DNA of 64,000 nt from Candidatus Woesearchaeota archaeon (GTDB taxonomy: Archaea > Nanobdellota > Nanobdellia > Woesearchaeales > JAZDKJ01), in assembly GCA_043803105.1 (NCBI GenBank), contig JAZDKJ010000006.1, forward strand, positions 288,001 through 352,000, given 5' to 3'. A model generated the notes under the pieces. That model did not search any database, had not been told where the DNA came from, and was given only the letters and a program-made list of their open reading frames with translations. The position numbers and the translations under genes were made by a program. How positions within the stretch are numbered: the first letter of the stretch is position 1; each line of letters starts with the position of its first letter. Positions 2,381 through 47,590 of the stretch are shown here, one piece after another.

Positions 2381-2521
2381 GCGGGAGTGCCGGAGTGGCC
2401 AAATGATGCCTAGAAAGCTTCAGGCTTGACGGGTACGGTTCAGGGCCGTATGGCTTAGACAATTCAAGGGCTTCCTTGTCTTGGAGCAGTGCCTACGAGG
2501 GTTCGAACCCCTTCTCCCGCA
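2381..2521 (+). tRNA. tRNA-Leu(CAG) with two non-canonical introns (2403-2428 in D-loop; 2459-2489 in variable arm)
   Basis: GCGGGAG/CTCCCGC acceptor, TACGG-TTCAGGG-CCGTA anticodon arm, GAGGGTTCGAACCCCTT T-arm; BHB-like helices GGCC/GGCT and GCTT/GAGC with 3-nt bulges. Confidence 0.92.
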
Positions 2522-2569
2522 TTTTGTTCTTCTGAATTTTGTAAAATCCTAGTTACCTTGAATCCAATA

Positions 2570-2611
2570 ATTGTCCACAAAAACGAAATATTTATATATA
2601 ATGTGGACAAT
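2570..2611. promoter_or_regulatory. Inverted repeat ATTGTCCACA-N22-TGTGGACAAT flanking the TATA box of Fic gene 1 (candidate operator)
   Basis: Perfect 10-bp inverted repeat on either side of TTTATATA. Confidence 0.55.
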
Positions 2612-2620
2612 ACTATCCTT

Positions 2621-3529
2621 ATGGCATATATCGATAGAGTCAAATCCGGGAAAAAGACCTTCTATTACCTTGGGAAGACAATAAGGTTGGGCCAAAAGGA
2701 ATGGAAGAAGATAAGGATTAAACTAGGTGAAAAAGAGCCCACAAAGGAAGAAATCGCAGCCAAACTCAAGGATTTGAGACTTGAGCAATACAAAGTCTAT
2801 AATGAGGAATACCTTGATGCAGCGAAACTTGAGGTCATTGATGATTTCAGAGAGGTTTATCAAAACCATGTCAAGACTATCCCGAAGACAGTCCTTGAAA
2901 AGGAGGAAAATGCCTTTGTTATTAGGTTCACCTACAACTCAAATGCCATTGAAGGCAATAGGCTGACTTTACGAGATACTTACCTTATCATCAAGGAAAA
3001 ACAAATTCCATCAGGCGCTCCTCCAAAGGACTACAATGAAGCCATCAATGGCAGGGAAGCCTTTGACTTCATTAAGGAATACACGGGCAAGCTGACGATA
3101 GAGTTTATCGAAAAACTGAACGGCATCCTCACAAAGAACACAGGAGTGATTTATCCTGGAAGGGTGCGCTTCTTTCCGGTAAAGATCGAAGGAACGGAAT
3201 ATCAGCCGCCTGATGAAAAGGACGTGCCAAAACTACTGAAAAAGATGATTACATTCTATGACGAAAACAAACGAAAGATACATCCGTTTGTTTTGGCTTG
3301 CCTGATTCATGCGCAATTTGTTGAAATCCATCCTTTTGAAGATGGAAACGGGAGAACAGGCAGGGCACTGATGAACTGGGTCTTGCTGCAATCAGACTAT
3401 CCCAAGCTGTTTGTCCCGGTCAAGCTGCGGCCAAAATATTATGAGGCCATTGATCTGCACAATGCAGGAAATGTTAAAGGATATTGCGAAAAGATGTTTG
3501 AGATAGTTGTTGAGCAATTCACCTTGTGA
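2621..3529 (+). CDS. Fic family protein with N-terminal inhibitory motif
   Basis: HPFEDGNGRTGR Fic motif; SNAIEGN inhibitory helix; ATG at 2621 after TATA. Confidence 0.93.
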   Translation: MAYIDRVKSGKKTFYYLGKTIRLGQKEWKKIRIKLGEKEPTKEEIAAKLKDLRLEQYKVYNEEYLDAAKLEVIDDFREVYQNHVKTIPKTVLEKEENAFVIRFTYNSNAIEGNRLTLRDTYLIIKEKQIPSGAPPKDYNEAINGREAFDFIKEYTGKLTIEFIEKLNGILTKNTGVIYPGRVRFFPVKIEGTEYQPPDEKDVPKLLKKMITFYDENKRKIHPFVLACLIHAQFVEIHPFEDGNGRTGRALMNWVLLQSDYPKLFVPVKLRPKYYEAIDLHNAGNVKGYCEKMFEIVVEQFTL

Positions 3530-3669: not shown

Positions 3670-3897
3670 ATGGTACAAGCTGTGATAGATATTGATGAGA
3701 ACACCAACAGGGTCCTGAATATTGTGAAAGCTAAACACGGGCTCAAAGATAAATCTCAGGCCATTAATCTTGTTGTGACTGAATACGAAGAGAGTTTTCT
3801 CGAACCCGAATTAAGACCTGAGTACAAGAACAAGCTTGCCAAGATTTTGAAAGGTAGACACCTTTCCAGAGCAGAACTTGAGGGAGAGGCAAAATAA
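3670..3897 (+). CDS. Antitoxin (DUF2683-like, RHH-type)
   Basis: MVQAVIDIDENTNRVLNIVKAKHGLKDKSQAI...EPELRPEY; directly upstream of RelE-like toxin. Confidence 0.8.
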   Translation: MVQAVIDIDENTNRVLNIVKAKHGLKDKSQAINLVVTEYEESFLEPELRPEYKNKLAKILKGRHLSRAELEGEAK

Positions 3898-4164
3898 TTG
3901 TATGCAGACCAATACAGTGAAGAAATTACTGATAAATTAGGCAGGCTCAAGAAGAAAGACACTAAACAATATCAAATTGTTTTCAAAAAGATTGATTGGA
4001 TCCTCGCAAATCCAAATCACAGATATAAAGATCTTCACCACAGCATGAAAGGGTTGCAACGCGTCCACCTGGGGCATTTCGTCCTGGTCTTTAGGATAGA
4101 CCATGCCAACAAGATTGTTTCTTTTGAAGACTATGACCATCACGATAAGATATACATAACTTGA
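3898..4164 (+). CDS. RelE/ParE family toxin
   Basis: 88 aa, basic, LQRVHLGHFVLVF...DHHDKIY. Confidence 0.85.
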   Translation: MYADQYSEEITDKLGRLKKKDTKQYQIVFKKIDWILANPNHRYKDLHHSMKGLQRVHLGHFVLVFRIDHANKIVSFEDYDHHDKIYIT

Positions 4165-4282: not shown

Positions 4283-5224
4283 ATGCATGTAGAAATCAGA
4301 AAAAAAGGAAAAAAGACCAAATATTACTTGGCACATTCCTTCAGGGAAGGGGGAAAAGTCCGAAAGATTCGGAAATACCTTGGGGAAGGCATTTCTAAAG
4401 ACCAGATTAAGGAAAAGCTGCAAAAAGCAGAATGGCAGATAAAAGAAACACTAAAAATCTATAATGAGATAAAAGACCCTCTAAAAAACTTGCTAACGAA
4501 TGAAGAGTTGGATCATTTGAAGATGCTAAGCTTTGATATTGGGCTAAAAATACAGCATCTTTCCGAAAAAGACTGGCAAAGGTTTGCCGAGGCCTTTACC
4601 TACGACACAAATGCCATAGAAGGATCAACAGTCACACTAGGGGAAGTAAAGAATATCATTGAGGGGAAGGAATGGCCAAGAGATGCGTCCAAGGAAGACA
4701 TCGCAGAGACATATGGGGTGGCAGAAGCAGTGCATTACATCAGGCAAACCAAAGAGCATGTTTCCATCAACCTCATAAAGAAACTGCACAGTATAGTATT
4801 TGCAAACTCAAAGCATTTTGCCGGAAAACTGAGGCCTAAGGGGGTTGAGGTCGTGATTCGGGATGGCAGGGGGAACATAGTCCATCAAGGTGCACCTGCA
4901 ACAAAGATCACCGCGTTGATAAGAGAACTTGCTGGTTGGTATGAGGTAAACAAGGCAAATTACCACCCAATCATCCTGGCTGCGGTTATCCATAATCAGT
5001 TTGAAAGCATTCATCCATTTCAGGATGGAAACGGAAGGGTGGGAAGGTTGCTTCTCAACAACATCCTGATAAAACATGGTTTGCCTCCAGTCAATATAGA
5101 GCTGAAGAACCGTGCGGAATATTATACCTCGCTCCAGGAATACCAGAGCAATGGCAATTTGAGGCCAACGATAGATTTGATTCTTAAGGAATACAAAATC
5201 CTTAAGAGACATCTTAAGAGGTGA
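4283..5224 (+). CDS. Fic family protein 2
   Basis: HPFQDGNGRVGR; TNAIEGS inhibitory motif. Confidence 0.93.
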   Translation: MHVEIRKKGKKTKYYLAHSFREGGKVRKIRKYLGEGISKDQIKEKLQKAEWQIKETLKIYNEIKDPLKNLLTNEELDHLKMLSFDIGLKIQHLSEKDWQRFAEAFTYDTNAIEGSTVTLGEVKNIIEGKEWPRDASKEDIAETYGVAEAVHYIRQTKEHVSINLIKKLHSIVFANSKHFAGKLRPKGVEVVIRDGRGNIVHQGAPATKITALIRELAGWYEVNKANYHPIILAAVIHNQFESIHPFQDGNGRVGRLLLNNILIKHGLPPVNIELKNRAEYYTSLQEYQSNGNLRPTIDLILKEYKILKRHLKR

Positions 5225-5385: not shown

Positions 5386-5934
5386 TTAATGTAGGAGGAG
5401 TCGGATTGCCTCATACTTGTTTTTCACTGCTTTCTTCTGGCCAGGTGATAATTTTTGCCATGACTTCTGGTATTTTTTAAGGACCCATTCCTTGGCTTTA
5501 TCATGATTGAACCCGTTTATGCTGTAACCTTGGAATGCTTGAAGTACAAAATGGTCGAAATGGGATAGTGCATCAGCGTCTGTCAATGCGGTAGCTTCCT
5601 TCGATTTGAGGTCATCTAGCAGATCATGCTTCGATATACAATCCTTGACCCTCTTGATCATGGCCTTATCATAATGCAATTCCTCGAGTATCTTTGCAGC
5701 CTCTCTTGCCCCTGTTTTACTGTGAGATTTGAAGTCACCGCCCTTGATCAGATCGATATCATGTAACCATGCTGCCAATTCCACAATTCTTGGGTCTGCA
5801 CCATTTCTAGCTGCGAGCTTCTTTGCATATCGCACAGTGGACTTGATGTGGCTTTCCCAGTCAATCTTGTCGTTAAGACCTTGAGTTTCTTTTGTCCTGC
5901 AGAGCCTCAGCACAACATCTTCTACATCTCTCAT
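5386..5934 (-). CDS. HD domain phosphohydrolase
   Basis: H...AAWLHDID...H...DADALSHFD. Confidence 0.85.
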   Translation of the reverse strand: MRDVEDVVLRLCRTKETQGLNDKIDWESHIKSTVRYAKKLAARNGADPRIVELAAWLHDIDLIKGGDFKSHSKTGAREAAKILEELHYDKAMIKRVKDCISKHDLLDDLKSKEATALTDADALSHFDHFVLQAFQGYSINGFNHDKAKEWVLKKYQKSWQKLSPGQKKAVKNKYEAIRLLLH

Positions 5935-6107: not shown

Positions 6108-6411
6108 TCATTTCGGAATGCACCGATAATCCTGAATGTCCAACACCCAGCAATCTCCAGTCTTTACCACTTTATTATCCTTTAGGTAGATCTTTCCGTG
6201 GAACAAGGGGCTGTCGGTCACAAACGTGTGAAATTCACCGTATTCTCCACAAGGGTCTAACCCCTTCCCTTTTAAATACGCAATGAACTGTTCATCAAAC
6301 TTCTTTCCAACCCAGCCCATGTCTATGAGTGCCGCATTTACACAAATGATGTATGCTTCAATCCCCGATCTAATAGTCTCCCTTGCTAATTCTTCGGTGT
6401 TTTCATTCGCA
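6108..6411 (-). pseudogene. 5'-truncated diphthine-ammonia ligase / ATP pyrophosphatase (Dph6 family) C-terminal fragment
   Basis: EAYIICVNA...DPCGEYGEFHTFVTDSPLF; N-terminal SGGKDS half absent. Confidence 0.8.
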
Positions 6412-6445: not shown

Positions 6446-6670
6446 ATGGCAACAACAATACAAGTCTCAGATAGGGTAAAGCAGACTCTTGACAGGATGA
6501 AACTCTATGAACGAGAAAGCTATAATGACGTGATTGAGAACCTGATTGAGGATCATCTGGAACTGAACGAAGACACGAAGAAACAGATTGAAGAAGCAAG
6601 AAAAAGAATCAAGTCTGGCAAATTCGTGACACAGGAAGAGATAGAGAGACGACTCCAATGTTCAAGATAG
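6446..6670 (+). CDS. Antitoxin (RHH/CopG-like, RelB-type)
   Basis: MATTIQVS...ESYNDVI...IKSGKFVTQEEI; overlaps toxin start. Confidence 0.8.
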   Translation: MATTIQVSDRVKQTLDRMKLYERESYNDVIENLIEDHLELNEDTKKQIEEARKRIKSGKFVTQEEIERRLQCSR

Positions 6671-6906
6671 TCTGGGACGCGAAGGCATTCCAGGAGCTTG
6701 AAAAGCTGGAATCCACTGTTTCTCGCAGGATACTTAAGAAAGTGAGGCAGCTGGAGGAAGACCCTTTCGCAAAAGACGTCAAGAAGCTAAAAGGCAGTGA
6801 TGGCTTCAGGCTGCGTATTGGTGATTATAGAGTTATCTTTGCGGTTGATAGCGGGCAAATCCAAGTTCTAAAAGTAGGTCATAAGAAGAACATCTACAAG
6901 GACTAA
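6658..6906 (+). CDS. relE: RelE family toxin
   Basis: VKKLKG..FRLRIGDYRVIF...VGHKKNIY. Confidence 0.9.
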   Translation: MFKIVWDAKAFQELEKLESTVSRRILKKVRQLEEDPFAKDVKKLKGSDGFRLRIGDYRVIFAVDSGQIQVLKVGHKKNIYKD

Positions 6907-8434: not shown

Positions 8435-9511
8435 ATGGAGATTTCAGATAACGACTTAGACTTCTTAAGAGAAACAGCGAGGCCTTGGAAACATTATCTG
8501 CAATATTATAAGGAATATATTCAATTGGCTCAAGGACTTGAGGAAATTGATGTGGACCCACACTATTTCAATAGGGCAGAGAGACGAAAGCGGATTATGA
8601 TAGAATTCTTAAATAGATTTCGCATTGACGATTTCACCGGCGATTTACGGAGCCTTAGGAAATCGCTAAAGTCAGGCATTCTCGTCGGTTGGAAAAAAAA
8701 GAAGTTACTAAAAGGAATAGACCGATGGGCAGTAATTGGGATTGTCCAAGAATCCATGCTGGATCTTCGTTGGTTGGTTCATTTGAGAGATAGCAATTTT
8801 AATGAGGGAAAACCCTTGGAGTTACGTTTGAGAATATCGAGTAGGGATTGTCAGGAATTTCTTAACATCTTGACCAAAAATTATGAAGTTCTGGAACATA
8901 TGATACAAATTGAGGACTCACGTATTGCATTTTGGAATTCGGTCAAGAGCGAATGCGCCAGAAAGAGACTAAATATTTTTGGACAAGCCCTGTCAGTCCA
9001 TGCAACCAGTTATAATTGGACTGTCAGGGAAATAATGAGATTTCGCCGTATAGGATTAATGTCCCCAAACGAGATTGGAAGGGTAGGAAAGGGAAGCTGG
9101 GCAGGTAGTCATTTTCCGTCTTGCATTTCTCTGTGTTTTAATGAAAGTGGTTATCAACGCTACGAAAAGGGGAGGGTTAACTTCATCATAGACCCTAGTT
9201 TCGTAAGAGGTAGTAATCAATTCTTTTACATAGGCGACAAGCCTGATGACAAAGGACGGCAGGTACTGGCCCAGGCAGGAATCGGAATTGAGCAGGGCAC
9301 TCGTTTTTGCCGAGATTATGGACCCAATCCTGGTTTCCATAATGAGGTTCTTTCATTGATGCCAATCCCTTTTGAAGCCATAATCGGAATTGTCATTGAA
9401 CCAGAGCATCTAGCGGATATTTCTCCATTTTTACTTAAGTTTGCGGAAAGAGACTACAAAAATGCCATTCCAGTCTATGATTTTGACGGGAATATGATAT
9501 GGCCTGTCTAA
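8435..9511 (+). CDS. Hypothetical protein with C-terminal ADP-ribosyltransferase-like (DarT/Tpt1-fold) pattern
   Basis: HAT...I...GLMS, ISL, FIID, NEVL...IP...IIGIVI; GGAGG RBS. Confidence 0.55.
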   Translation: MEISDNDLDFLRETARPWKHYLQYYKEYIQLAQGLEEIDVDPHYFNRAERRKRIMIEFLNRFRIDDFTGDLRSLRKSLKSGILVGWKKKKLLKGIDRWAVIGIVQESMLDLRWLVHLRDSNFNEGKPLELRLRISSRDCQEFLNILTKNYEVLEHMIQIEDSRIAFWNSVKSECARKRLNIFGQALSVHATSYNWTVREIMRFRRIGLMSPNEIGRVGKGSWAGSHFPSCISLCFNESGYQRYEKGRVNFIIDPSFVRGSNQFFYIGDKPDDKGRQVLAQAGIGIEQGTRFCRDYGPNPGFHNEVLSLMPIPFEAIIGIVIEPEHLADISPFLLKFAERDYKNAIPVYDFDGNMIWPV

Positions 9512-9633
9512 TTTTTTTGATTAAATATGTCCTCCAAGAGTGAAACAACACTATGCCTGGGGTTCGAACTATACGGTTGCTGCGCTTCTCCCGCATTATT
9601 TTTGTTTATGGGTTCCTCTACCTTTGGCTGCCT

Positions 9634-11040
9634 TCAGACATCAAGAACTATCTTATCTGTTATCTCTCCAGGCTTTCCGCCCTGGAAGTTCATGAAACCC
9701 TTATGTAAAGAAAAATCTGGAAACATGAATTTCTTTGTCGCTTTCTTTCCAATAAATTCCTGCATAGCCTCACGTATAGGCTGGTAATTTGATAAAGTAC
9801 CTGCTTTGGTATTTGCAACTATATCCACCTGTTCACTATATAATTCCTTTAGTTTTGGTAGGAACTCCTTGAGTACCTGATAAGCTATATTCTTTGTGAA
9901 TTCAGGGCATTGGACAGAATCTATAAGAAGGCTTCTTCGTTGTTCATGCAGGACGTCAAAGTCCTTGTCACTTTCCACTATGTATATGTTTCCGACATAT
10001 TTTTCGTCTGCATAAATCTTGAAGTTGTGGCAATTTGCCTGATAAAATGGCAGTGGTTTATCTCGCGTGCAATCCCTTGATACTTGGCCTGCCTTGAAGT
10101 CTATTTCCGGATTGTATTCAGGGTCTATTCTGTATTTCGTGGTTTTTTCTACTGAGTTTATCGCTGGTGTCAGCACTTTGGTCAGACTCTCACAACCTTT
10201 GGCTAATTCAGTATAAGCTCGGTAGGAGGGGACGAAGTAATCTGCAACGTTCGAGAGTTCAATCATCATCTGCTCATCTTCCTCTCTTATCTTGTTCAAT
10301 TGCCGCACTATTCTACGTGTCTTGGTCTTGGATGCAGTTTTCAACTGGCTTGCCAGCTCTATCTCTAGATTATGTAGGGGAAGTTCCTTGCGCTTGATGT
10401 TCCGAAGCTTTTGTCCTATTTCTGAAATGCTCAATACCTTGAGCCTGTCTGCTATTTCATCATAGCCGTATTCGTCTGCAATGTATCTTAGCAATTTTCC
10501 CCTGAAGAAAGGGGTTCCCATCTCCTCCTCAATTCTTTTGTGATATGTTTCAACCAAGAAATCCTTGTCTTCTGTTATGCTTTTTATTATTGATGCAAGC
10601 TTGTATACTTCCTTGAAATCTGCACTTATTCTTTCACCCATCTCATCGAGTGGCTTTGCTTTTGACAACAAAAGGTAACGGTCATTAGATAATTGGGTTA
10701 ACATTCCTGTCAGCTTGTGTACGTGGCAGAATAGATTTTCATCAACACAACCAAACACACTTGAGAGCTGCCGATTCGTCCCATCATCCAGTATGTATTC
10801 GCCTCTCCAGTCAGCACCAAATGCCTTTGTCAGCTCTGCCCGGCCAAGGTTATCCCAGTCGCAATACAGCCAGTTATTGTATCCCCTTGCTTTAAACATG
10901 TCCTCCCTGTCTAATCTGTCACGGACAGCCAATATTCTTGTGACCATGGTTTCCAGTGAGTCATCTGCCAATTCCTGTTCCCGCCATTTTAGCTCGCAGT
11001 CTATGACAGGGACAATTCTATGACCTTTTGCCTTTTCCAT
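9634..11040 (-). CDS. Hypothetical protein (coiled-coil middle, possible GNAT-like C-terminus)
   Basis: 468-aa ORF, TATA upstream. Confidence 0.7.
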   Translation of the reverse strand: MEKAKGHRIVPVIDCELKWREQELADDSLETMVTRILAVRDRLDREDMFKARGYNNWLYCDWDNLGRAELTKAFGADWRGEYILDDGTNRQLSSVFGCVDENLFCHVHKLTGMLTQLSNDRYLLLSKAKPLDEMGERISADFKEVYKLASIIKSITEDKDFLVETYHKRIEEEMGTPFFRGKLLRYIADEYGYDEIADRLKVLSISEIGQKLRNIKRKELPLHNLEIELASQLKTASKTKTRRIVRQLNKIREEDEQMMIELSNVADYFVPSYRAYTELAKGCESLTKVLTPAINSVEKTTKYRIDPEYNPEIDFKAGQVSRDCTRDKPLPFYQANCHNFKIYADEKYVGNIYIVESDKDFDVLHEQRRSLLIDSVQCPEFTKNIAYQVLKEFLPKLKELYSEQVDIVANTKAGTLSNYQPIREAMQEFIGKKATKKFMFPDFSLHKGFMNFQGGKPGEITDKIVLDV

Positions 11041-11186
11041 GGAGCAATTCCCTTTGAATACCTCTATATAAATCTTTCCTTTTGTAATTACTATAAAGAG
11101 ACGACAATAACTCGCTCTTTAACTGTCCTCCAGAATAGCATTAACCTATACGCCTGATACGCTTCTCCCGCATTTCTCTAGATGAC

Positions 11187-11241
11187 AAAAAAAAGAAAAA
11201 GGGTTCGCGGAACATGGTTAACGAACCTGACCAAGTCTTCA
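11187..11241 (-). ncRNA. Putative small antisense RNA 1, complementary to D-loop and variable arm of the tRNA(GAA) at 11357
   Basis: GGAACATGGTTAAC (11209-22 = 11368-81) and TGACCAAGTCTTCA (11228-41 = 11407-20); minus-strand TATA at 11264-72; U-tract terminator. Confidence 0.75.
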
Positions 11242-11356
11242 AATGGTTTTATTTTAATTATTCTATATAAAACTTTCTCCAATCCGTGCGAAACTTTTCC
11301 GAAAATTTTTGGCAAAAGTATAATACAGTCTTGTTTTGATGATTTAACCGTGCGAA

Positions 11357-11510
11357 GCCGGGTTGCAGGAACATGGTTAACTGACTCTGCTGAAAACAGA
11401 GAGACTTGACCAAGTCTTCAGGTGTCAGAGACAAAGTCTCTGAGCATGCTCAGAAATTCAATGAATTTCTGACAGTTCAAAACTTAACAGGGAGAATCCC
11501 TGGCCCGGCG
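11357..11510 (+). tRNA. Atypical tRNA(GAA) with long variable arm and G73; 52-bp palindromic insertion in T-stem and 15-nt T-loop intron
   Basis: GCCGGGT/GCCCGGC acceptor; CTCTG-CTGAAAA-CAGAG; AGACTT-GACC-AAGTCT variable arm; CAGG(G)TTCAAA..TCCCTG. Confidence 0.75.
11423..11474. repeat. 52-bp compound palindrome (MITE/REP-like) inside the tRNA T-stem
   Basis: TGTCAGA...TCTGACA termini, central CTGAGCATGCTCAG, internal hairpins. Confidence 0.7.
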
Positions 11511-11516
11511 CAAAAT

Positions 11517-12248
11517 TCAGCGCGGATGTTTAAGCATTTCGTTAAATCTGTTCAGCGATTCTGCATAAGCGTCATGATACTCACTGGGTGTTTGTGCCTT
11601 ATGCTCGAAAACGATTATCACATCCTCAGGTATTTTCTTCACGAATGGTTCAGTTATTTTTGTTCCGATTACCATGTGTCTTTTTGTTCCATCAAAATCT
11701 GATAAATGAATCACCTTGATATGTTTGCCAATTTCCTTCAAGAAATCATCGATATTAAGTCCGCTCTCAAGGGCATGGCAGGTGTCAAAACACAAGTTTA
11801 TGCCTGAGTTTAGTACCATACCAATCTCTTTCACGCCCATTTTGAAGTTAGTTTCTGCTGCATTTTCCACAATGATAGAGTCACTTGAGGTCTGCATTTT
11901 TATTAGTTCAACGATGGATACTAGATTATCATGATCTTTTGGATGTATGATGAGGTATTTAGAACTCAATATTTCTTTTACTTCCAGGTACACAGCAAGA
12001 GTGTTGATTGATTCATTCTTAGCGGTCGGGAGCCATCCGTGAACAACTGGAAAGTCAAGCTTATACCTTGCAGCATTTTCTTTCATCTGTCGAGCCTTAT
12101 CTGGAAAAGAATTGTCTAGAGATGGATTCTGCTCGTTAATGCCATAATGAACGAAACTGAATTGTGCGTGCTTGAAACCAATAGAACTTATTTGGCTAAA
12201 TAACAATCCTAATTCAATATTCTTTGTGAGATTGGCACAGACTATCAT
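11517..12248 (-). CDS. Sugar phosphate isomerase/epimerase (xylose isomerase-like TIM barrel)
   Basis: VEN, CFDTCH, IHLSD..G..RHM..G, VFEH motifs. Confidence 0.75.
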   Translation of the reverse strand: MIVCANLTKNIELGLLFSQISSIGFKHAQFSFVHYGINEQNPSLDNSFPDKARQMKENAARYKLDFPVVHGWLPTAKNESINTLAVYLEVKEILSSKYLIIHPKDHDNLVSIVELIKMQTSSDSIIVENAAETNFKMGVKEIGMVLNSGINLCFDTCHALESGLNIDDFLKEIGKHIKVIHLSDFDGTKRHMVIGTKITEPFVKKIPEDVIIVFEHKAQTPSEYHDAYAESLNRFNEMLKHPR

Positions 12249-12334
12249 TTGTAAAGCAATAGATATGGTAGTTTATATGCCTTTTTGCCAAAATCCCCAA
12301 AGCTTTATAATTCTCAAACGAACAATATGATGTT

Positions 12335-13180
12335 ATGAAGGATTTAACTCGCCGCGAATTCGGGCATCTTTGTTTACAGGCTGCAGCGGTAATGGCTCTT
12401 CCTTCTGAACTTGAAGCAATAACCAAAGAAGAATCGAAGTACTTTCCGTTGGCTAAAGGCAACACATGGACTTATGTAAGGAATCTCTTAAGGCCACAAG
12501 AGGTTTCGAGTTACTATGAAGCAACTGTGTTATCTCAAGGGGAAGGCGACGCTCCTGCAGGGTCAAATGTGTTTTGGGTCGAACATTTGTCATCTGAAGC
12601 CAAGAAAACCTCAACTGAAACATATACAATCACAGGTCTGAAGCGCGAAGGGTTTGAGGTTGAGCGCTCAGCAGCTGATGTGCGCGACGGCAGGTATGAC
12701 ATAACTTCAGATCTTGACACCTTCCCAAAAGTCTTCTGGACGTATTATAATGCTTGTGTGAAGGAAAGTTATACTGAGGGCAGCAAAAAGGCAGGCCATA
12801 GGAACATCTGGAGGTTCACCGCAGTTCTAGACCCAGGCACCATAGTCGGGCGCCATAAGAATCCTCGATGGCATGTTGCAGCAATTGAATACGACAAGTC
12901 AATAACCGTTCCGGCAGGAAGATTCGGCAACATCTTGAAGAACGTAACTCTAGTCTTTGGAACGAATATTGCGGATGTCATCTTTAAGGACGCAAAGCCA
13001 ATTTACCAGAAGGATAGGCGTGCTGACAATTGTTTCATGACCGTGGTATATTATGCTCCAAAGGTTGGCCTCGTAAAGGAGGTCCAGTACAATCGGGAGG
13101 GAAAAGAGACGTACACCTTGGAGCTGCAATCATTTAACGTAAAGAACTTCTTGAAACAGACCATTTTCGCAAAAATTTAA
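12335..13180 (+). CDS. Tat-signal secreted beta-rich protein (DUF3108-like)
   Basis: TRREF twin-arginine signal; YFPLAKGNTWTY, ITVPAGRF, YYAPKVGLVKE. Confidence 0.7.
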   Translation: MKDLTRREFGHLCLQAAAVMALPSELEAITKEESKYFPLAKGNTWTYVRNLLRPQEVSSYYEATVLSQGEGDAPAGSNVFWVEHLSSEAKKTSTETYTITGLKREGFEVERSAADVRDGRYDITSDLDTFPKVFWTYYNACVKESYTEGSKKAGHRNIWRFTAVLDPGTIVGRHKNPRWHVAAIEYDKSITVPAGRFGNILKNVTLVFGTNIADVIFKDAKPIYQKDRRADNCFMTVVYYAPKVGLVKEVQYNREGKETYTLELQSFNVKNFLKQTIFAKI

Positions 13181-13206
13181 ATATCTCTTTGACAGACTAC
13201 GCTTCT

Positions 13207-13788
13207 ATGTCAAACAGGCTTGCCATCAATATTGTCCTTCTTCCTTCTCCCGAGATGACCAGAAAATGTATCTACCTAAACAGGAAGCTGCCTGACAGAG
13301 ATATTGTTCTAGATGCGCAAAGCTGCATTCCTCACCTGTCACTTTGCATGGCAGGTATTGAGGCAGGGAATCTTTCCAAAGTCTCAGCTGTGCTTGACCA
13401 ACTGAAAGTTAAACCGCTTAGCCTGGAATCCAATGGTTTACAGGCATACCCTGTGCCAAAAGCAAAGCCTTTTTGCGGGCTCTACATAACAAAAACCCCA
13501 GAGCTCACCAAATTGCAAGAACAGGTCATAGACATCATAAAGCCATTTGCCGTAAAAGTTGGTGTTGCTGACTTTATAGATGGGCCAAAGCCCCTTGATG
13601 CTGTTTGGGTAAGTAACTATGTGAAGAACGCATCCAGTGGCAAATTTAATCCCCATATAACCATTGGCTTGGGAAAGTTTGAGCAATTATCCTCTCCAAT
13701 AAGTTTCGAAGCAACCAAGCTTGCTATCTGCCATCTTGGAAAGTTTTGCACTTGCAGAAAATTGCTCCATGAGGTTCAACTAAAGTGA
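13207..13788 (+). CDS. 2H phosphoesterase (2'-5' RNA ligase family)
   Basis: Two HxS/T motifs: PHLSL, PHITI. Confidence 0.85.
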   Translation: MSNRLAINIVLLPSPEMTRKCIYLNRKLPDRDIVLDAQSCIPHLSLCMAGIEAGNLSKVSAVLDQLKVKPLSLESNGLQAYPVPKAKPFCGLYITKTPELTKLQEQVIDIIKPFAVKVGVADFIDGPKPLDAVWVSNYVKNASSGKFNPHITIGLGKFEQLSSPISFEATKLAICHLGKFCTCRKLLHEVQLK

Positions 13789-14144
13789 TAATCAAGAAAG
13801 CACATAAGGCGATTATTTCAGCAGACGGCTGCATTTTAAAAGAGCTCCTGACAAAGAAAGATAAAGCCAAGTACAGTGTTGCCCTTGCCAAGCTTGCTCC
13901 CAATAAGTCAAGCAAGCCTCACAAACTAAAGAGCTCTGAAGCCTATTTTATAATCAAAGGAACAGGGATCATGCATATCGGCAAAGAGTCAAGGAGAGTA
14001 ACACAAAATCAGTTGATTTATATCCAGCCAAATTCTTTGCAGTATATCAAGAACATAGGGAAAACAGACCTCATCTTTCTTTGCATCGTCAGTCCGCCTT
14101 GGAAGAAGTCCGATGAGGTAGTTTTCAGAGGTAAATCGGTTTGA
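13785..14144 (+). CDS. Cupin domain protein
   Basis: HKLKSSEAYFIIKGTG...FLCIVSPPW. Confidence 0.85.
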   Translation: MIIKKAHKAIISADGCILKELLTKKDKAKYSVALAKLAPNKSSKPHKLKSSEAYFIIKGTGIMHIGKESRRVTQNQLIYIQPNSLQYIKNIGKTDLIFLCIVSPPWKKSDEVVFRGKSV

Positions 14145-14191
14145 CTTTTGCTCGACTTATAAATCTATGACTTCTCTCAACTCTGAACTGG

Positions 14192-14617
14192 CTAAGAAAT
14201 GCGCGCACGTATTCTATTGATGCGTTTCCTTTTGACTATCTCTCGCAATGCCCACGCAGCCATCTCGATGCTCGTGAGTAACTCTTCTGCTCCGGTTCTC
14301 ACCTTTGGAAAGAACTCACGGACATCCTTATCTGCAAAGTATTGGTCGATGGATTTTATGGTCTTAGTCCTTGTATCCTCGCCCTTGCCGTACATCTGGC
14401 CAGGGTGAAAAAGCTCAATTTGTTTTCCAAGAAAGTACTGCCATTCATCTATCTCTTTGCAATCTAGCACTGAATCAATGCTGTCACGGATTCTTCTGTT
14501 TGGCATGAGTGCATCCCTTGCTTTGAAAATATCCTCTGCAATCAGATATCTTGGAAATTCTGTGTGCCTTTCATCAGTTAGCTGTCCGACCTTGACAAGA
14601 GCTGCATAGTATCCCAT
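14192..14617 (-). CDS. Hypothetical protein
   Basis: ORF with TTTAAATA upstream. Confidence 0.55.
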   Translation of the reverse strand: MGYYAALVKVGQLTDERHTEFPRYLIAEDIFKARDALMPNRRIRDSIDSVLDCKEIDEWQYFLGKQIELFHPGQMYGKGEDTRTKTIKSIDQYFADKDVREFFPKVRTGAEELLTSIEMAAWALREIVKRKRINRIRARIS

Positions 14618-14693
14618 CTTCAAGGGAATCTCACTGTATTATTTAAACATTGATAGGAAAACCTTTTTATTGCCTGCCTTGTTCCGCAACCTC

Positions 14694-15188
14694 ATGCCTG
14701 GGAAAAGCATTGTGCTGATAGATGGTCTTGATTGCTATATAGAAAGTTTGTCTATCTGCATTGAGGATCTTGGTTATGTGGCTAGACCCCTTATCCTTGA
14801 CCTGGAAAAGAATGTTGTGGGCCAAGCCAGAGACTTCTTTACCAAACTTGACAGGTTTTCTATAGAAAAGGTTATTCTCTCAGAGCTGAGGAGAGAGTAC
14901 TTGCCTCACATTAATGAAAATGCAACCAGGCAGGAGGTGCAGGCAGAAATATGCAGATATCAGTCCATTGAGGACGCTAACTATGGGCAGACATTGAGCG
15001 TTCTGGTGTGGTTGAAATCAAACTCTTTCAAGGATATTTCAATGGTTCTTCCGAGTTTGCAGGCAGCTCAGCACGAGATATTGACTTTGTATCGGCAGCA
15101 TGGGGCAAGCAGGATTTTAGAAAAGGTCGCAGATTGTGATAAAACCTTGGCCGCGATTCTTCATGGCTCGCCACAATTCCCTTCGTGA
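14694..15188 (+). CDS. Degenerate response-regulator receiver-like protein
   Basis: SIVLIDG...LGY...GASRILEK pattern. Confidence 0.45.
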   Translation: MPGKSIVLIDGLDCYIESLSICIEDLGYVARPLILDLEKNVVGQARDFFTKLDRFSIEKVILSELRREYLPHINENATRQEVQAEICRYQSIEDANYGQTLSVLVWLKSNSFKDISMVLPSLQAAQHEILTLYRQHGASRILEKVADCDKTLAAILHGSPQFPS

Positions 15189-15258
15189 CCACAATCACTG
15201 CACGAATTCTTCTCTTTGTACCAAATCTTTTTAAGCTTTGCAGGATTTTTTATCTCCC

Positions 15259-15732
15259 ATGTCAAGGACTCTTCTCTACATTGAGGATGATGAATCTCTG
15301 GTTAGGATGTGGAGGTCTGTCCTGCAGGCTTATGGCCATGGAACAGAGGAGCCAAAAGAGCCGCTTGACGACTCTAATCTGAACCAGACAATTGATATGG
15401 TCATTGTCCATGACCTTAAGAATGCTGCTGGTTGGTACAGTGGTCCTGTAATCCCTGAATCAGATTTTCAGAAGGCAAAACAACTTGTGAGGCAGGAGGA
15501 ACTTAAGCCCTATGCCTTAAGCATTCTTGTCATCTACACCTTCAGGCACTTTTTTCAATACACCAATCCGATTTGTGTCTTGGTTGATGATTTATCCTTT
15601 GCCCCAAAGGCTCTTGTGCCAGCATATCAAAGTCTTGGCGCAAATTTTGTGCTGGAAAAGCCTTTGTCTGTCATGGACTTTGTGAGGGATACCCTGCCGT
15701 TTCTCTATGATAAGCCCCTGGCTTCATCGTAG
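15259..15732 (+). CDS. Atypical response-regulator receiver (CheY-like) protein
   Basis: TLLYIEDD...AYGH...IDMVIVHD...LGANFVLEKP. Confidence 0.65.
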   Translation: MSRTLLYIEDDESLVRMWRSVLQAYGHGTEEPKEPLDDSNLNQTIDMVIVHDLKNAAGWYSGPVIPESDFQKAKQLVRQEELKPYALSILVIYTFRHFFQYTNPICVLVDDLSFAPKALVPAYQSLGANFVLEKPLSVMDFVRDTLPFLYDKPLASS

Positions 15733-15769
15733 AAATTCTTATAAACAATTTGCATTTCTTCTCTCTCAA

Positions 15770-15841
15770 GGGCACGTAGCTCAGTAGCAGAGCGTTCCCC
15801 TCGCACGGGAAAGGCCGCGAGTGCGACTCTCGCCGTGTCCA
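15770..15841 (+). tRNA. tRNA-Ala(CGC)
   Basis: GGGCACG/CGTGTCC with G3:U70; TTCCC-CTCGCAC-GGGAA; T-loop TGCGACT. Confidence 0.88.
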
Positions 15842-15953
15842 GTCACTTTGAATCGGTTGGACGAGTTCGTTTTCCCAGGTTCGCCCGAGCTTAAGCGAGC
15901 GGCGTGCCAGAAAACTGATGGTTTTCTGAGCATTTGCATATTGCAAAAAGCTG

Positions 15954-16056
15954 CGCGAGTGCGACTCTCGCCGTGTCCAGTTCTGCTAAAAGCGTGGTCG
16001 TTTTTCCCAGGTTTTTGCGTATCGCAAAAAGCTGTTCCGGCTCTCGCCGTGTCCAC
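15954..16056 (+). repeat. Two extra copies of the tRNA-Ala(CGC) 3' end (att-like scars)
   Basis: CGCGAGTGCGACTCTCGCCGTGTCCAGT at 15954; CTCTCGCCGTGTCCA at ~16042; spacers share TTTTCCCAGGTT and GCAAAAAGCTG. Confidence 0.85.
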
Positions 16057-16068
16057 TCTTTGACAATT

Positions 16069-16112
16069 AAAAAAAAAGAAAAAGCTCGCACAATCAGGCT
16101 GGGTTCGCGTCC
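16069..16112 (-). ncRNA. Putative small antisense RNA 2, complementary to D-arm and variable arm of the tRNA(GAA) at 16225
   Basis: GCTCGCACAATCAGG vs GCTCGCATAATCAGG; TGGGTTCGCGTCC vs TGGATTCGCGTCC; TATA at 16135-43; same U-tract as RNA 1. Confidence 0.75.
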
Positions 16113-16224
16113 GGTTGTATTGAAAATATTCAAATATATAAAACTTGCCTCGGATTTTCCGGAAAATCAGCTATATTTTGTCAGTCAACAATAAGAACCA
16201 AGTGATACCGAATATAGACGCGAA

Positions 16225-16323
16225 GCCGGGCTCGCATAATCAGGTATTGCGTCTGCCTGAAGAGCAGATGGATTCGCGTCCATCAGGGTTCAAATTCTCA
16301 TCATGAGAATCCCTGGCCCGGCG
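16225..16323 (+). tRNA. Atypical tRNA(GAA) with Ser-like long variable arm, G73 and 15-nt BHB intron at 59/60 (16295-16309)
   Basis: GCCGGGC/GCCCGGC; TCTGC-CTGAAGA-GCAGA; TGGA-TTCGCG-TCCA; A15:U48; CAGGG/CCCTG; BHB TTCA/TGAG with AAT bulges; 84-nt mature. Confidence 0.85.
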
Positions 16324-16395
16324 CAAATCAACAAGATTTTCTGCCAGGGTCCGGCCTTTACTCAGGTGTATGTCTAGCTTCCTGTTGTTAGAATT

Positions 16396-16704
16396 CTATT
16401 GTCTGCAGCCAGAGCAGAGTGCAGCCTCTTTGCTGCTTTGCGACATTATCTTTGTGTCTGGCCCTTTCCTCAGCAATGATTCTGTCAACCTTTGAAGCGG
16501 GTCAAACTGCTGATGAACACTGTCTGGCAGAATGTTGGGGCTTGGTAATTGACTGTAATTATCATACATCCTTAAAAGTCCTGGAAGGCCACCATACAGT
16601 GGAATGCCCATTGCATAATCCTTTTTTTCTGGAGGAAGAAACGGAATACTCAGTGCATAATCCTGCTCCTGCTTTCGTTCCGGTACATTATATCCTACTT
16701 CCAT
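16396..16704 (-). CDS. Hypothetical protein
   Basis: 102-aa ORF with TTTAAA upstream. Confidence 0.45.
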   Translation of the reverse strand: MEVGYNVPERKQEQDYALSIPFLPPEKKDYAMGIPLYGGLPGLLRMYDNYSQLPSPNILPDSVHQQFDPLQRLTESLLRKGPDTKIMSQSSKEAALCSGCRQ

Positions 16705-16739
16705 AATACTAAGAATTCCTTTATTCTTTAAATTCCTTT

Positions 16740-19163
<2,424 letters not shown>

Positions 19164-47474: not shown

Positions 47475-47590
47475 GGGCCCATAGCTTAGCAGGTAGAGCA
47501 TCCGGCTCTTAAGATTCAAAGCAACCGGAAGGTCGGGAGTTCAAAAGGCTCTTAGCGCATGTTAAGGCATTGAAAGCCTCCCTGGGCTCA
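47475..47590 (+). tRNA. tRNA-Lys(CTT) with 12-nt canonical intron (47512-47523) and 31-nt T-loop intron (47546-47576)
   Basis: GGGCCCA/TGGGCTC; TCCGG-CTCTTAA-CCGGA; BHB TTCA/TGAA. Confidence 0.92.

Follow-up and report, generated by a model that had tools for sequence, protein, structure and literature searches.

Type I toxin-antitoxin systems such as hok/sok depend on an adjacent antisense RNA that has hairpins and a terminator and is partially complementary to its target; they are patchy in distribution and multi-copy. SdsR/RyeA is a type VIII system in which the toxin is an RNA. Type I systems are stated to be known only from three bacterial phyla (PMC12390103). In the type VIII system CreTA, which occurs in archaea, both partners are RNA and CreT harms the cell via its tRNA pool, by sequestering a tRNA (PMC8501985). 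Bacterial allo-tRNAs are natural tRNAs of serine identity with mostly non-serine anticodons, often found near toxin-antitoxin loci and transposons, and members with the leucine anticodons GAG and UAA insert serine at leucine codons and arrest or kill E. coli (Mukai et al., 2017, PMC5389517). In yeast, the variants tS-F(GAA), tS-I(GAU), and tS-L(UAA) combine a serine body with a foreign anticodon and are lethal on accumulation, toxicity being set by the tRNA level; the GAA case is suppressed by extra tRNA-Phe (PMC6125640). The same source mentions Candida tRNA-Ser(CAG), again a serine body with a foreign anticodon. Here, we describe two loci from a Candidatus Woesearchaeota archaeon that recall both groups of systems. 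They lie at 11187-11510 and 16069-16323 of a 64,000-nt stretch of contig JAZDKJ010000006.1 (assembly GCA_043803105.1; the window, in whose plus-strand positions all coordinates without a contig label are given). In each, a serine-like tRNA gene with the phenylalanine anticodon GAA is preceded by a partial copy of itself, which reads as a divergent antisense small RNA gene on the minus strand.

Serine identity resides in the variable arm and in G73, the anticodon being ignored; G73 is a strong determinant and G30-C40 a weaker one, and G73 blocks LeuRS in Haloferax (PMC9976931). Archaeal phenylalanine identity is listed in the same paper as A73, G20, and C13-G22 besides GAA. Partial tRNA copies upstream of an intact tRNA gene have been described in archaea in a scar setting (Sugahara et al., 2012, PMC3293823). 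The presence of a divergent antisense small RNA gene beside each of the two tRNAs is well supported by the sequence comparisons below. That tRNA and antisense RNA form a functional pair is probable, by our own estimate and not by computation.

Results

Each Element Matches Its Own tRNA

Both loci show the same plus-strand order, as read from the sequence: an A-run, a block matching the D region of the tRNA, a block matching its variable arm, TATATAAAACTT, a TTTTCCG(G)AAAAT palindrome, GCGAA, and the tRNA (Table 1). An initial annotation of the window, made from the sequence alone, had proposed this shared layout, and all of its parts were found again on re-reading. In copy 1, the D block (11209-11222) and the variable-arm block (11228-11241) are identical to 11368-11381 and 11407-11420 of the tRNA. 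In copy 2, the D block (16084-16098) agrees with 16230-16244 in 14/15 positions, the element having C in place of the tRNA's T at the remaining one, and the variable-arm block (16101-16112) agrees with 16270-16281 in 11/12. In a repeat search, the two blocks of copy 1 grew to 22 nt (86%) and 17 nt (94%), and a direct repeat of 13 nt (92%) was returned for copy 2. The distance from the variable-arm block to the TATA-like box is 22 nt in both copies. Antisense RNA 1 is predicted to fold into a single-stranded 5' tail and a GGUUCG/CGAACC hairpin with the complement of the D loop in its loop.

Including three modules of the source genome, 22 non-redundant modules of this kind were collected from related archaea (see below). 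In local alignments, the similarity between an element and its own tRNA begins at about nt 4-8 of the tRNA and extends to the anticodon loop or variable arm; the first 3-7 nt are absent, and the T arm and the acceptor ends are never included. Three modules, namely both window copies and L021, skip the anticodon arm. Among the approximately 13 elements that span the anticodon loop, 7 copy it exactly (by reading).

When each minus-strand element was paired with all 22 tRNAs, its own tRNA was the best duplex partner in 19/22 cases, and one of the three misses, L031, had been scored on a wrong 80-nt stretch. In the window, the cognate duplexes reach -60.0 and -44.3 kcal/mol, compared to -29.3 and -15.1 for the swapped pairs and about -20 (standard deviation 3.6) for shuffled sequences. 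The cognate values thus lie well below the swapped and shuffled ones, in line with the earlier claim that each small RNA fits only its own tRNA.

As in antisense toxin-antitoxin systems, a complementary RNA is encoded adjacent to the putative toxin RNA. The upstream elements do not have the form of attachment-site (att) duplications, in which a contiguous copy of a tRNA end bounds an integrated element: they are devoid of either tRNA end, and only a promoter region separates each from its tRNA. True scars of tRNA-Ala and of the Leu-like tRNA lie beside them (see below). Guide RNAs were considered as well. A box C/D RNA, with C (RUGAUGA) and D (CUGA) boxes around guides of 10-12 nt, was rejected because no C box was seen on the minus strands by reading and Rfam gave no match within 9000-19000 at E-values up to 1; similarly, an H/ACA guide was rejected, with no boxes by reading and no Rfam match.

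The Element Bears Signatures of the Minus Strand

The differences between the tRNAs and their elements are markedly one-sided. From tRNA to element, 35 T>C and 34 G>A changes were counted, compared to 9 C>T and 3 A>G. Since the first two types keep a G-U or U-G pair with a minus-strand RNA and the latter two break one, G-U-compatible and incompatible differences stand at 69:12 (binomial p = 7e-11). Collapsing events shared at the same tRNA position leaves 40:12 (p = 1.3e-4). All four bases occur at equal frequency in the tRNA columns of the alignments, and compatible changes outnumber incompatible ones in 18 modules, with a tie in 4 and the reverse in 0. A drift toward A+T would favor C>T rather than T>C, so the T>C excess runs against such drift.

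Putative expression signals are arranged around the element. An oligo-U run is the usual archaeal terminator, and an A-rich purine run, oligo-U on the minus strand, abuts the far end of the element in 20/22 modules. A TATA-like box, reading TTTTATATA, TTTATATA, or TTAAATA on the minus strand, lies 16-25 nt from the near edge of the element in 15/21; in the other six, the alignment ended early or ran on. As the distance between this box and the tRNA varies from 15 to 93 nt, the box is placed relative to the element. One subgroup has a perfectly palindromic promoter, GCAAAGTATATAAGCTTTGC, from which transcription would start in both directions. A look-up of sequencing runs for window positions 11000-16500 listed none.

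In 17/22 modules, the minus-sense sequence folds more stably than the plus-sense one (Wilcoxon p = 0.01), and a hairpin directly precedes the U-run in about 16/22 (own count). Its stem varies from module to module (GCCGC, GCUGGG, CCAGG, GCUCAAU, and GGUUCG), and UUAUGYG, complementary to tRNA nt 8-15, is retained in its loop. In modules whose element extends across the anticodon arm, the matching codon, for example UUC, or UUU with a G-U pair, lies in the loop or in the 5' tail of the antisense RNA. The one-sided substitutions, the placing of TATA box and A-run, and the more stable minus-sense folds agree with the initial annotation in assigning the function of the element to the minus strand.

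TABLE 1 Features of the two modules and of their surroundings in the window
Feature	Position	Strand	Remarks
A-run 1	11187-11201	-	Minus strand reads CTTTTTCTTTTTTTT; putative oligo-U terminator for antisense RNA 1
Proposed antisense small-RNA gene 1	11201-11246	-	Complementary to the D region (11201-11222) and to the variable-arm loop and 3' strand (11225-11241) of tRNA 1
TATA-like box 1	11264-11279 (TATATAAAACTT at 11264-11275)	-	TTTTATATA on the minus strand, AGAAAG ahead of it there
Near-palindrome TTTTCCGAAAAT	11295-11306		Common to copy 2; possibly a regulator site ahead of the tRNA promoter
AAAAGTATAATAC, candidate transcription factor B recognition element (BRE)/TATA of tRNA 1	11314-11326	+	Proposed from reading; leader of ~8 nt ending GTGCGAA
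Class A tRNA 1	11357-11510	+	Type II; anticodon GAA 11392-11394; variable arm ~18 nt; G73 at 11510
A-run 2	16069-16084	-	Putative terminator for antisense RNA 2, oligo-U when read on the minus strand
Proposed antisense small-RNA gene 2	16084-16118	-	Complementary to the D region 16084-16098 (one G-U) and variable arm 16100-16112 (one mismatch) of tRNA 2
TATA-like box 2, TATATAAAACTT	16135-16146	-	Minus strand reads TTTTATATA; 22-nt gap to the complementary block
Palindrome TTTTCCGGAAAAT	16155-16167
Class A tRNA 2	16225-16323	+	Anticodon GAA 16259-16261; G30-C40; 15-nt variable arm; G73 at 16323
11-mer CTTCTCCCGCA	11162-11172		Equals the 3' end of the Leu-like type II tRNA 2381-2521
tRNA-Ala(CGC)	15770-15841	+	ARAGORN and Rfam
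Fic/DOC protein genes, two	2489-3529, 4283-5224
DUF2683 gene and weak ParE-like gene	3670-4164		ParE-like match below the Pfam cut-off
HD-domain protein gene	5386-5934
Diphthamide synthase fragment	6108-6320		70 aa
VapB-type antitoxin gene and ParE gene	6446-6906
DNA gyrase subunit B gene with intein	16740-19124	-	Intein_splicing, residues 435-591

Palindromes of the TTTCCGGAAA type recur near the modules: at 11295-11306 and 16155-16167 in the window, with similar sites near L017, L019, L028, L038, and L063. They lie between the TATA box and the tRNA in the source genome and past the A-run in the relatives. The motif has 5 sites in the source genome (6 matches if strands are counted separately, since the copy 2 site, being palindromic, matches on both) and may be a regulator site.

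Serine-Type tRNAs With Interrupted T Arms

Both tRNAs have a 7-bp acceptor stem, U8, GG in the D loop, a long variable arm, and G73. The anticodon loops, CUGAAAA in copy 1 and CUGAAGA in copy 2, present GAA in both. In a comparison with three relatives from other families, copy 2 shares its D arm exactly with tRNA-Ser(CGA) and nearly so with tRNA-Ser(GGA) and tRNA-Ser(GCU). By reading, position 30-40 is G-C in copy 2 and U-A in copy 1. A Ser-like tRNA with a Phe anticodon, as originally proposed, is therefore borne out by the long variable arm, G73, and GAA in both copies and by the Ser-type D arm in copy 2. Neither gene has a serine-codon anticodon (NGA or GCU), so they are not serine isoacceptors in decoding. 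Likewise, the archaeal tRNA-Phe set of A73, G20, C13-G22, and a short variable loop is not present; both have G73 and a long variable arm.

In the window, ARAGORN called only tRNA-Ala and a false transfer-messenger RNA (tmRNA), and Rfam reported only tRNA-Ala above threshold within 9000-19000, together with a partial match to copy 2 (19.2 bits). Both programs miss the GAA tRNAs because the T arm is interrupted by insertions, a feature that the initial annotation had not mentioned. In copy 2, a single 15-nt intron of bulge-helix-bulge (BHB) type occupies 16295-16309 at position 59/60, with the bulges AAT and AAT and the helix TTCA/TGAG; with this intron removed in silico, ARAGORN calls an 84-nt tRNA. 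Copy 1 has two insertions, 11423-11474 (52 nt, in the 5' strand of the T stem) and approximately 11482-11496 (~15 nt, in the T loop, 59/60), whose limits were set by reading, by analogy with family members. The ARAGORN "tmRNA*" at 15887-16330 (tag DTEYRREAGLA) was rejected as a false call spanning the tRNA-Ala scars and module 2.

The same architecture was seen in the 15 modules that could be parsed. A 3-nt bulge lies ahead of the 3' strand of the T stem, and the 4 nt preceding this bulge pair with T-loop nt 54-57. This central helix is complete, with four pairs, in 11/15 modules and has three pairs in 1 and one pair in 3; the last three have long insertions, which may be nested. The helix covaries, UUCA occurring with UGAA or UGAG and UUCG with CGGA or CGAA, and after in silico splicing ARAGORN calls all of them (15/15) as tRNAs of 84-90 nt. 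On these grounds we take the T-loop insertion to be a true intron of helix-bulge-helix-bulge-helix (hBHBh') geometry, with the predicted splice site at 59/60. The acceptor/T branch is 7/5 throughout the parsed modules and not 8/4 or 9/3.

The leader of the family (TTGTGCAAT, or GTGCGAA in the source genome) is complementary to the trailer (G73, then CACAA or CAAA), as in TTGTGC...GCACAA. In the window, 11350-11356 can pair with 11510-11515 and 16218-16224 with 16323-16328, the trailer here being G73-CAAA. Such pairing would lengthen the acceptor helix beyond a 3-nt bulge. A BHB at this leader-trailer helix was rejected on reading only, as it would not produce the mature ends.

A recurring intron type consists of two hairpins around a GCATGC-like center (TGTCAGA...TCTGA GCATGC TCAGA...TCTGACA). 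It was seen at 11423-11474 in the window, at C6:263690-263635 (-) and C8:41377-41406 of the source genome (C6, C8, and C12 denoting its contigs), and in L027, L028, L031, L038, and L054. It sits at differing places in differing tRNAs, as if mobile.

tRNA Complement of the Source Genome

The source genome comprises 1.56 Mb and is 96% complete. ARAGORN with introns finds 9 tRNAs in it and Rfam 6 above cut-off, a low yield that is explained by several introns in each of its tRNAs. With the canonical tRNA-Phe of G001, a genome of the same genus, as a probe, a canonical tRNA-Phe was located at C12:181423-181652 (type I, A73, loop CUGAAGA, 5-nt variable loop, three insertions); canonical tRNA-Phe is also present in G001 and G168. 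A D-arm scan returned tRNA-Ser with the anticodons GGA, UGA, GCU, and CGA. The two GAA genes are hence extras that are required neither for phenylalanine nor for serine codons, and neither is the only tRNA-Phe of the genome, the case that the initial annotation had named as fatal to its reading. In a strict anticodon scan of the source genome, which missed the real tRNA-Phe with its D-loop intron, only the two loci among 28 GAA candidates were judged tRNA-like.

The canonical tRNA-Phe also speaks against a reassignment of UUY to serine, and the existence of tRNA-Ser(GGA) against editing of A35 back to a serine anticodon; both were rejected. A split or permuted tRNA was rejected because the downstream gene is complete. 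The "tRNA-Phe(gaa)" with intron that ARAGORN reports at C12:77067-77166 is, by reading, a type II tRNA with A73 and most likely tRNA-Leu(GAG) with a misplaced intron. At 47482-47553 of the window (C6:335482-335553, +), a partial Rfam tRNA match below the cut-off (24.2 bits, model positions 8-63) is probably another intron-bearing tRNA overlooked by standard tools.

Upstream copies of a different kind were observed outside the window. Exact copies of the first 14 nt lie 70-100 nt upstream of canonical tRNAs (Arg-UCG, one undetermined, and Ser-CGA) at C6:449376-449584 (+), C6:221251-221050 (-), and C8:113780-114015 (+), and also at C6:6873 (-), followed by a conserved hairpin, CTCACAGAAC-loop-GTTCTGTGG. 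Genome G035 has two upstream copies before tRNA-Ser(GCU), whose hairpins differ yet stay paired. These copies could be the scar of an element integrating at the 5' end or another tRNA-linked RNA.

Distribution of the Module

A pattern of Ser-type D arm and GAA loop (at most one mismatch) matched in 10/401 genomes of the order, 8 of which, from six GTDB families, have such genes with non-serine anticodons (GAA, CAA, UAA, or GAC). In the collection genome_contigs, the Ser-type D arm combined with an anticodon whose middle base is A or T was found at 41 loci, nearly all in assemblies titled Woesearchaeota, Nanoarchaeota, or alike. The module is present at 19 of these loci, which together with three from the source genome gives the 22 analyzed here; the covarying upstream element that the initial annotation expected in homologs was thus recovered. 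The anticodons are GAA for Phe codons (8 modules), CAA (4), UAA (2), and CAG (2) for Leu codons, GAU for Ile codons (4), and GAC for Val codons (2). All 22 modules would therefore decode codons with U in the middle, a middle T in the anticodon occurring in none, and G73 is present in 22/22.

One locus has two modules in tandem. In the source genome, a further module with the anticodon GAU lies at C6:263590-263860 (-) with its own A-run, element, and TATA box. A dead copy at C8:41333-41446 consists of an A-run and an element-like 5' part fused straight to a tRNA 3' part, the product expected from recombination of the two direct repeats. The GAU module and the GAA module L063 of another genome adjoin homologous membrane proteins (43% identical), which suggests one old locus with a changed anticodon. 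No protein family shared among the 22 neighborhoods was found, and an apparent cluster of four loci was partly made of open reading frames read through the tRNA.

The same pattern matched twice in IMG/VR, without a module in either case. BLAST of module 2 against 40 relatives returned no homologous module, only pieces of tRNA-Ser. The DNA of G001 (84% complete) has diverged too far for synteny; no module was found in the ~550 nt past its tRNA-Ala. Furthermore, L044, on a contig titled Micrarchaeota, is an intron-less Ser-like tRNA of 86 nt with UAA, G73, and no partner element.

Genomic Surroundings

Both modules follow tRNA-derived repeats. The Leu-like tRNA at 2381-2521 lies 8.6 kb upstream of its 11-nt scar CTTCTCCCGCA, which precedes module 1 and is read as an att-like scar bounding a toxin-antitoxin-rich island. 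The last 15 nt of tRNA-Ala occur three times, from 15827, 15965 (-15979), and 16041 (-16055), and the additional 3' ends directly ahead of module 2 are read as integration scars. These repeats and the Fic, ParE, and VapB genes (Table 1) match the earlier description of tRNA-anchored hot spots with copy 1 near protein toxin-antitoxin systems. Module 2 is followed by core genes, namely GyrB with an intein, HisRS, and FtsY. The dead copy on C8 likewise follows a Leu-like tRNA, so that the ancestral order appears to be a tRNA gene and then the module, elements having integrated between them later. Overall, the modules are patchy, multi-copy, and next to tRNA integration scars and a Fic/ParE/VapB island.

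Discussion

Proposed Mechanism

The observations can be assembled into a two-gene module. The plus-strand gene would encode an intron-bearing type II tRNA with a tRNA-Ser body (with a Ser-type D arm in most members) and an anticodon for codons with U in the middle. The minus-strand gene would be transcribed divergently from the TATA box about 22 nt away and end at the oligo-U run, yielding a small RNA of 35-80 nt that evolved from a truncated tRNA copy. This RNA appears to have kept its pairing, G-U pairs included, with exposed parts of its own tRNA, i.e., the anticodon or variable-arm loop and the D region.

From this arrangement we infer transcription of the minus strand, serylation, decoding, toxicity, neutralization, and differing stabilities of the two RNAs. 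As seryl-tRNA synthetase (SerRS) ignores the anticodon, the spliced tRNA would be charged with serine, which it would insert at Phe (or Leu, Ile, Val) codons, to the harm of the cell. The antisense RNA would seed on an exposed loop, the anticodon loop in most relatives and the variable-arm loop in both window copies, and then invade the D arm, thereby masking the anticodon or the SerRS determinants or halting maturation. Toxin-antitoxin behavior, either as addiction or as abortive defense, would result if the tRNA is stable and the antisense RNA short. More speculatively, the T-loop intron may free the D loop of the precursor from its T-loop partner and so open a time window for antisense action.

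We regard this full chain, an RNA-only toxin-antitoxin-like module in which a serylated miscoding tRNA is neutralized by an antisense RNA, as plausible at somewhat below an even chance. More tentative still is its extension to a protein-free family of toxin-antitoxin or abortive-defense systems of the Woesearchaeota, in which a Ser-accepting, NUN-reading tRNA toxin faces a short-lived antisense antitoxin with a codon or variable-loop seed and the NAN anticodon can switch at one locus. Of the initial interpretation, the Ser-type body, the Phe anticodon, the elements in homologs, and the minus-strand sequence signature stand, and the toxin step leans on outside experiments.

Several observations weigh against the proposed module. 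Its pairing is only partial, with 60 transversions beside the 81 transitions, and the modules share ancestry, so that the substitution counts are not independent events. For the elements of L017 and L027, the best partner is not their own tRNA. Purine counts for the BRE position gave no decisive preference, 12 modules favoring the minus strand, 7 the plus strand, and 2 neither, and in many relatives the sole clear TATA box is 15-25 nt from the tRNA 5' end, too close for a tRNA promoter. The D loop of copy 1 deviates from the Ser type, and by reading only 3/4 pairs form in the central helix of its second, T-loop intron. The pattern used to find the family required A or T as the middle anticodon base and could not see G or C. 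In a control with G or C in the middle and G or C as third base (metagenome_contigs), 7 loci had no module; as this control drew on another collection, the restriction to NAN is no more than likely. The shared membrane-protein neighborhood looks like long chromosomal residence and not like a mobile addiction gene. Finally, Ser-like CAA tRNAs occur without a partner (L034 with two genes, L035, L042, L043, L062, and L065; up to three copies per assembly). They have a Ser-type D arm, a long variable arm, G73, an anticodon-loop intron, and a normal T arm, with no A-run or element. A Ser-like body with a Leu anticodon may accordingly be tolerated or charged differently in the lineage; either UUG is partly read as serine there, or charging differs.

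Alternative Explanations

Two of these points, the membrane protein conserved beside the module in two distant genomes under different anticodons and the partner-less CAA tRNAs, would suit a regulated ambiguous decoding in which the antisense RNA tunes a Ser-inserting tRNA for host benefit at NUN codons, with no addiction or defense. The substitutions, signals, folds, and BHB introns fit this explanation equally well, and adaptive misincorporation is discussed in PMC6125640. We nevertheless consider it unlikely: the spread is patchy (8/401 genomes), single genomes have several copies with differing anticodons, one of them dead, and integration scars and toxin-antitoxin neighbors are the profile of dispensable selfish or defense loci. 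Moreover, in yeast the anticodons GAA, GAU, and UAA rank among the most harmful ones when placed on a Ser scaffold (PMC6125640). A tRNA-like RNA acting outside decoding, as a serine donor for a tRNA-dependent enzyme, a primer, or a structural RNA, with the small RNA as its regulator or processing guide, would leave the conservation and mutual complementarity of leader and trailer (TTGTGC...GCACAA) less surprising. SerRS-type bodies are indeed reused, for example in tRNA-Sec (PMC9976931), and many allo-tRNA(UAU) species were judged unused in translation by Mukai et al. (PMC5389517). The anticodon loops, however, keep U33 and a purine at 37, the anticodons are only NAN and do not drift, and 7 of the ~13 spanning elements copy the anticodon loop exactly; with a T arm that is canonical once the BHB is spliced, and with no conserved protein neighbor at 22 loci, such a role is improbable.

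It is very improbable that mobile elements left the upstream blocks behind as decaying tRNA fragments and that the GAA genes are functionless mutated copies of tRNA-Ser, even though mobile-element tRNA fragments upstream of tRNA genes are documented in Caldiarchaeum (PMC3293823), both loci sit among att-like repeats, other tRNAs of the source genome have exact upstream copies of their first 14 nt, and one module is clearly dead. Decay would hardly give the same architecture in 22 modules from at least six GTDB families, with elements that omit the first 3-7 nt and the T arm and are bounded by an A-run and a TATA box at fixed distance. Nor would it account for differences that are one-sided at 69:12 with T>C opposing A+T drift, for new perfect hairpins whose loops retain the tRNA complement, or for tRNAs that keep BHB covariation and full cloverleafs. 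Least probable of all, with hardly any weight in our assessment, is a true or dual-identity tRNA-Phe that is recognized by PheRS through GAA and charged with phenylalanine, so that no miscoding results. G34, A35, and A36 are PheRS determinants in all domains according to the table in PMC9976931, which for archaea also lists A73, G20, and C13-G22. In the present tRNAs, the discriminator is G73, the variable arm is long, and the D arm is of the Ser type; canonical tRNA-Phe genes exist in the source genome, G001, and G168, and sister modules bear Leu, Ile, and Val anticodons on the same body.

Implications

Even on a cautious reading, the conserved combination of a tRNA gene and its cognate small-RNA gene constitutes a locus of a new kind. 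If the proposed reading is right, it would show that direct antisense control of a tRNA can evolve through duplication and truncation of the tRNA gene. Should the proposed mechanism be proven, the modules would form a new class of toxin. In them, a toxin would for the first time act by rewriting the genetic code, and a tRNA would for the first time have an antisense regulator of its own; the toxin tRNA would attack the hydrophobic cores of all new proteins. Deliberate miscoding would then be a weapon of the cell or of a selfish element, restrained by a matching RNA. Such a module would join three fields so far unconnected, namely natural tRNAs with mismatched identity and anticodon, RNA-only toxin-antitoxin systems, and the tRNA biology of DPANN archaea, and it would provide a natural, compact, and programmable switch for proteome-wide substitution of Phe, Leu, Ile, or Val by Ser. 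For annotation, the tRNA genes of these genomes are largely invisible to standard tools, and isotype calls based on the anticodon only can err.

Comparison With Known Systems

In the literature collection searched, we found neither the pairing of a tRNA gene with a gene for its cognate antisense RNA nor such serine-type NAN tRNAs in archaea described. Partial tRNA copies upstream of intact genes resemble the modules in layout. The fragments of Sugahara et al. (2012), as described in PMC3293823, are 5' fragments, and a recombinase-bearing element lies between fragment and gene. In contrast, the present element is without the 5' end, lies 40-160 nt from the gene, is flanked by promoter and terminator, and covaries with the tRNA across families.

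On the side of the tRNA, the yeast variants are engineered, and their level is set by tRNA decay with no dedicated antisense RNA in the account of PMC6125640; Candida tRNA-Ser(CAG) represents a fixed codon reassignment. Allo-tRNAs are bacterial, have an 8/4 or 9/3 branch, and carry anticodons for 35 codons, and the term "antisense" is absent from the text of PMC5389517. The present family differs in being archaeal, in its 7/5 branch and T-loop BHB intron, in showing only NAN anticodons, and in having its own cognate small-RNA gene.

On the side of the antisense RNA, type I systems have a small-protein toxin whose mRNA is blocked by the antisense RNA, whereas here there is no open reading frame and the proposed toxin is itself an RNA. 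CreA of the CreTA system is a CRISPR-like guide that represses the creT promoter via Cascade, and CreT is a small RNA and not a tRNA (PMC8501985). In the present modules, by comparison, the toxin would be a complete miscoding tRNA and the antitoxin would pair with it directly. The nearest known systems are the allo-tRNAs, which have another fold and no partner, and the RNA-RNA toxin-antitoxin pairs, in which the toxins are not tRNAs.

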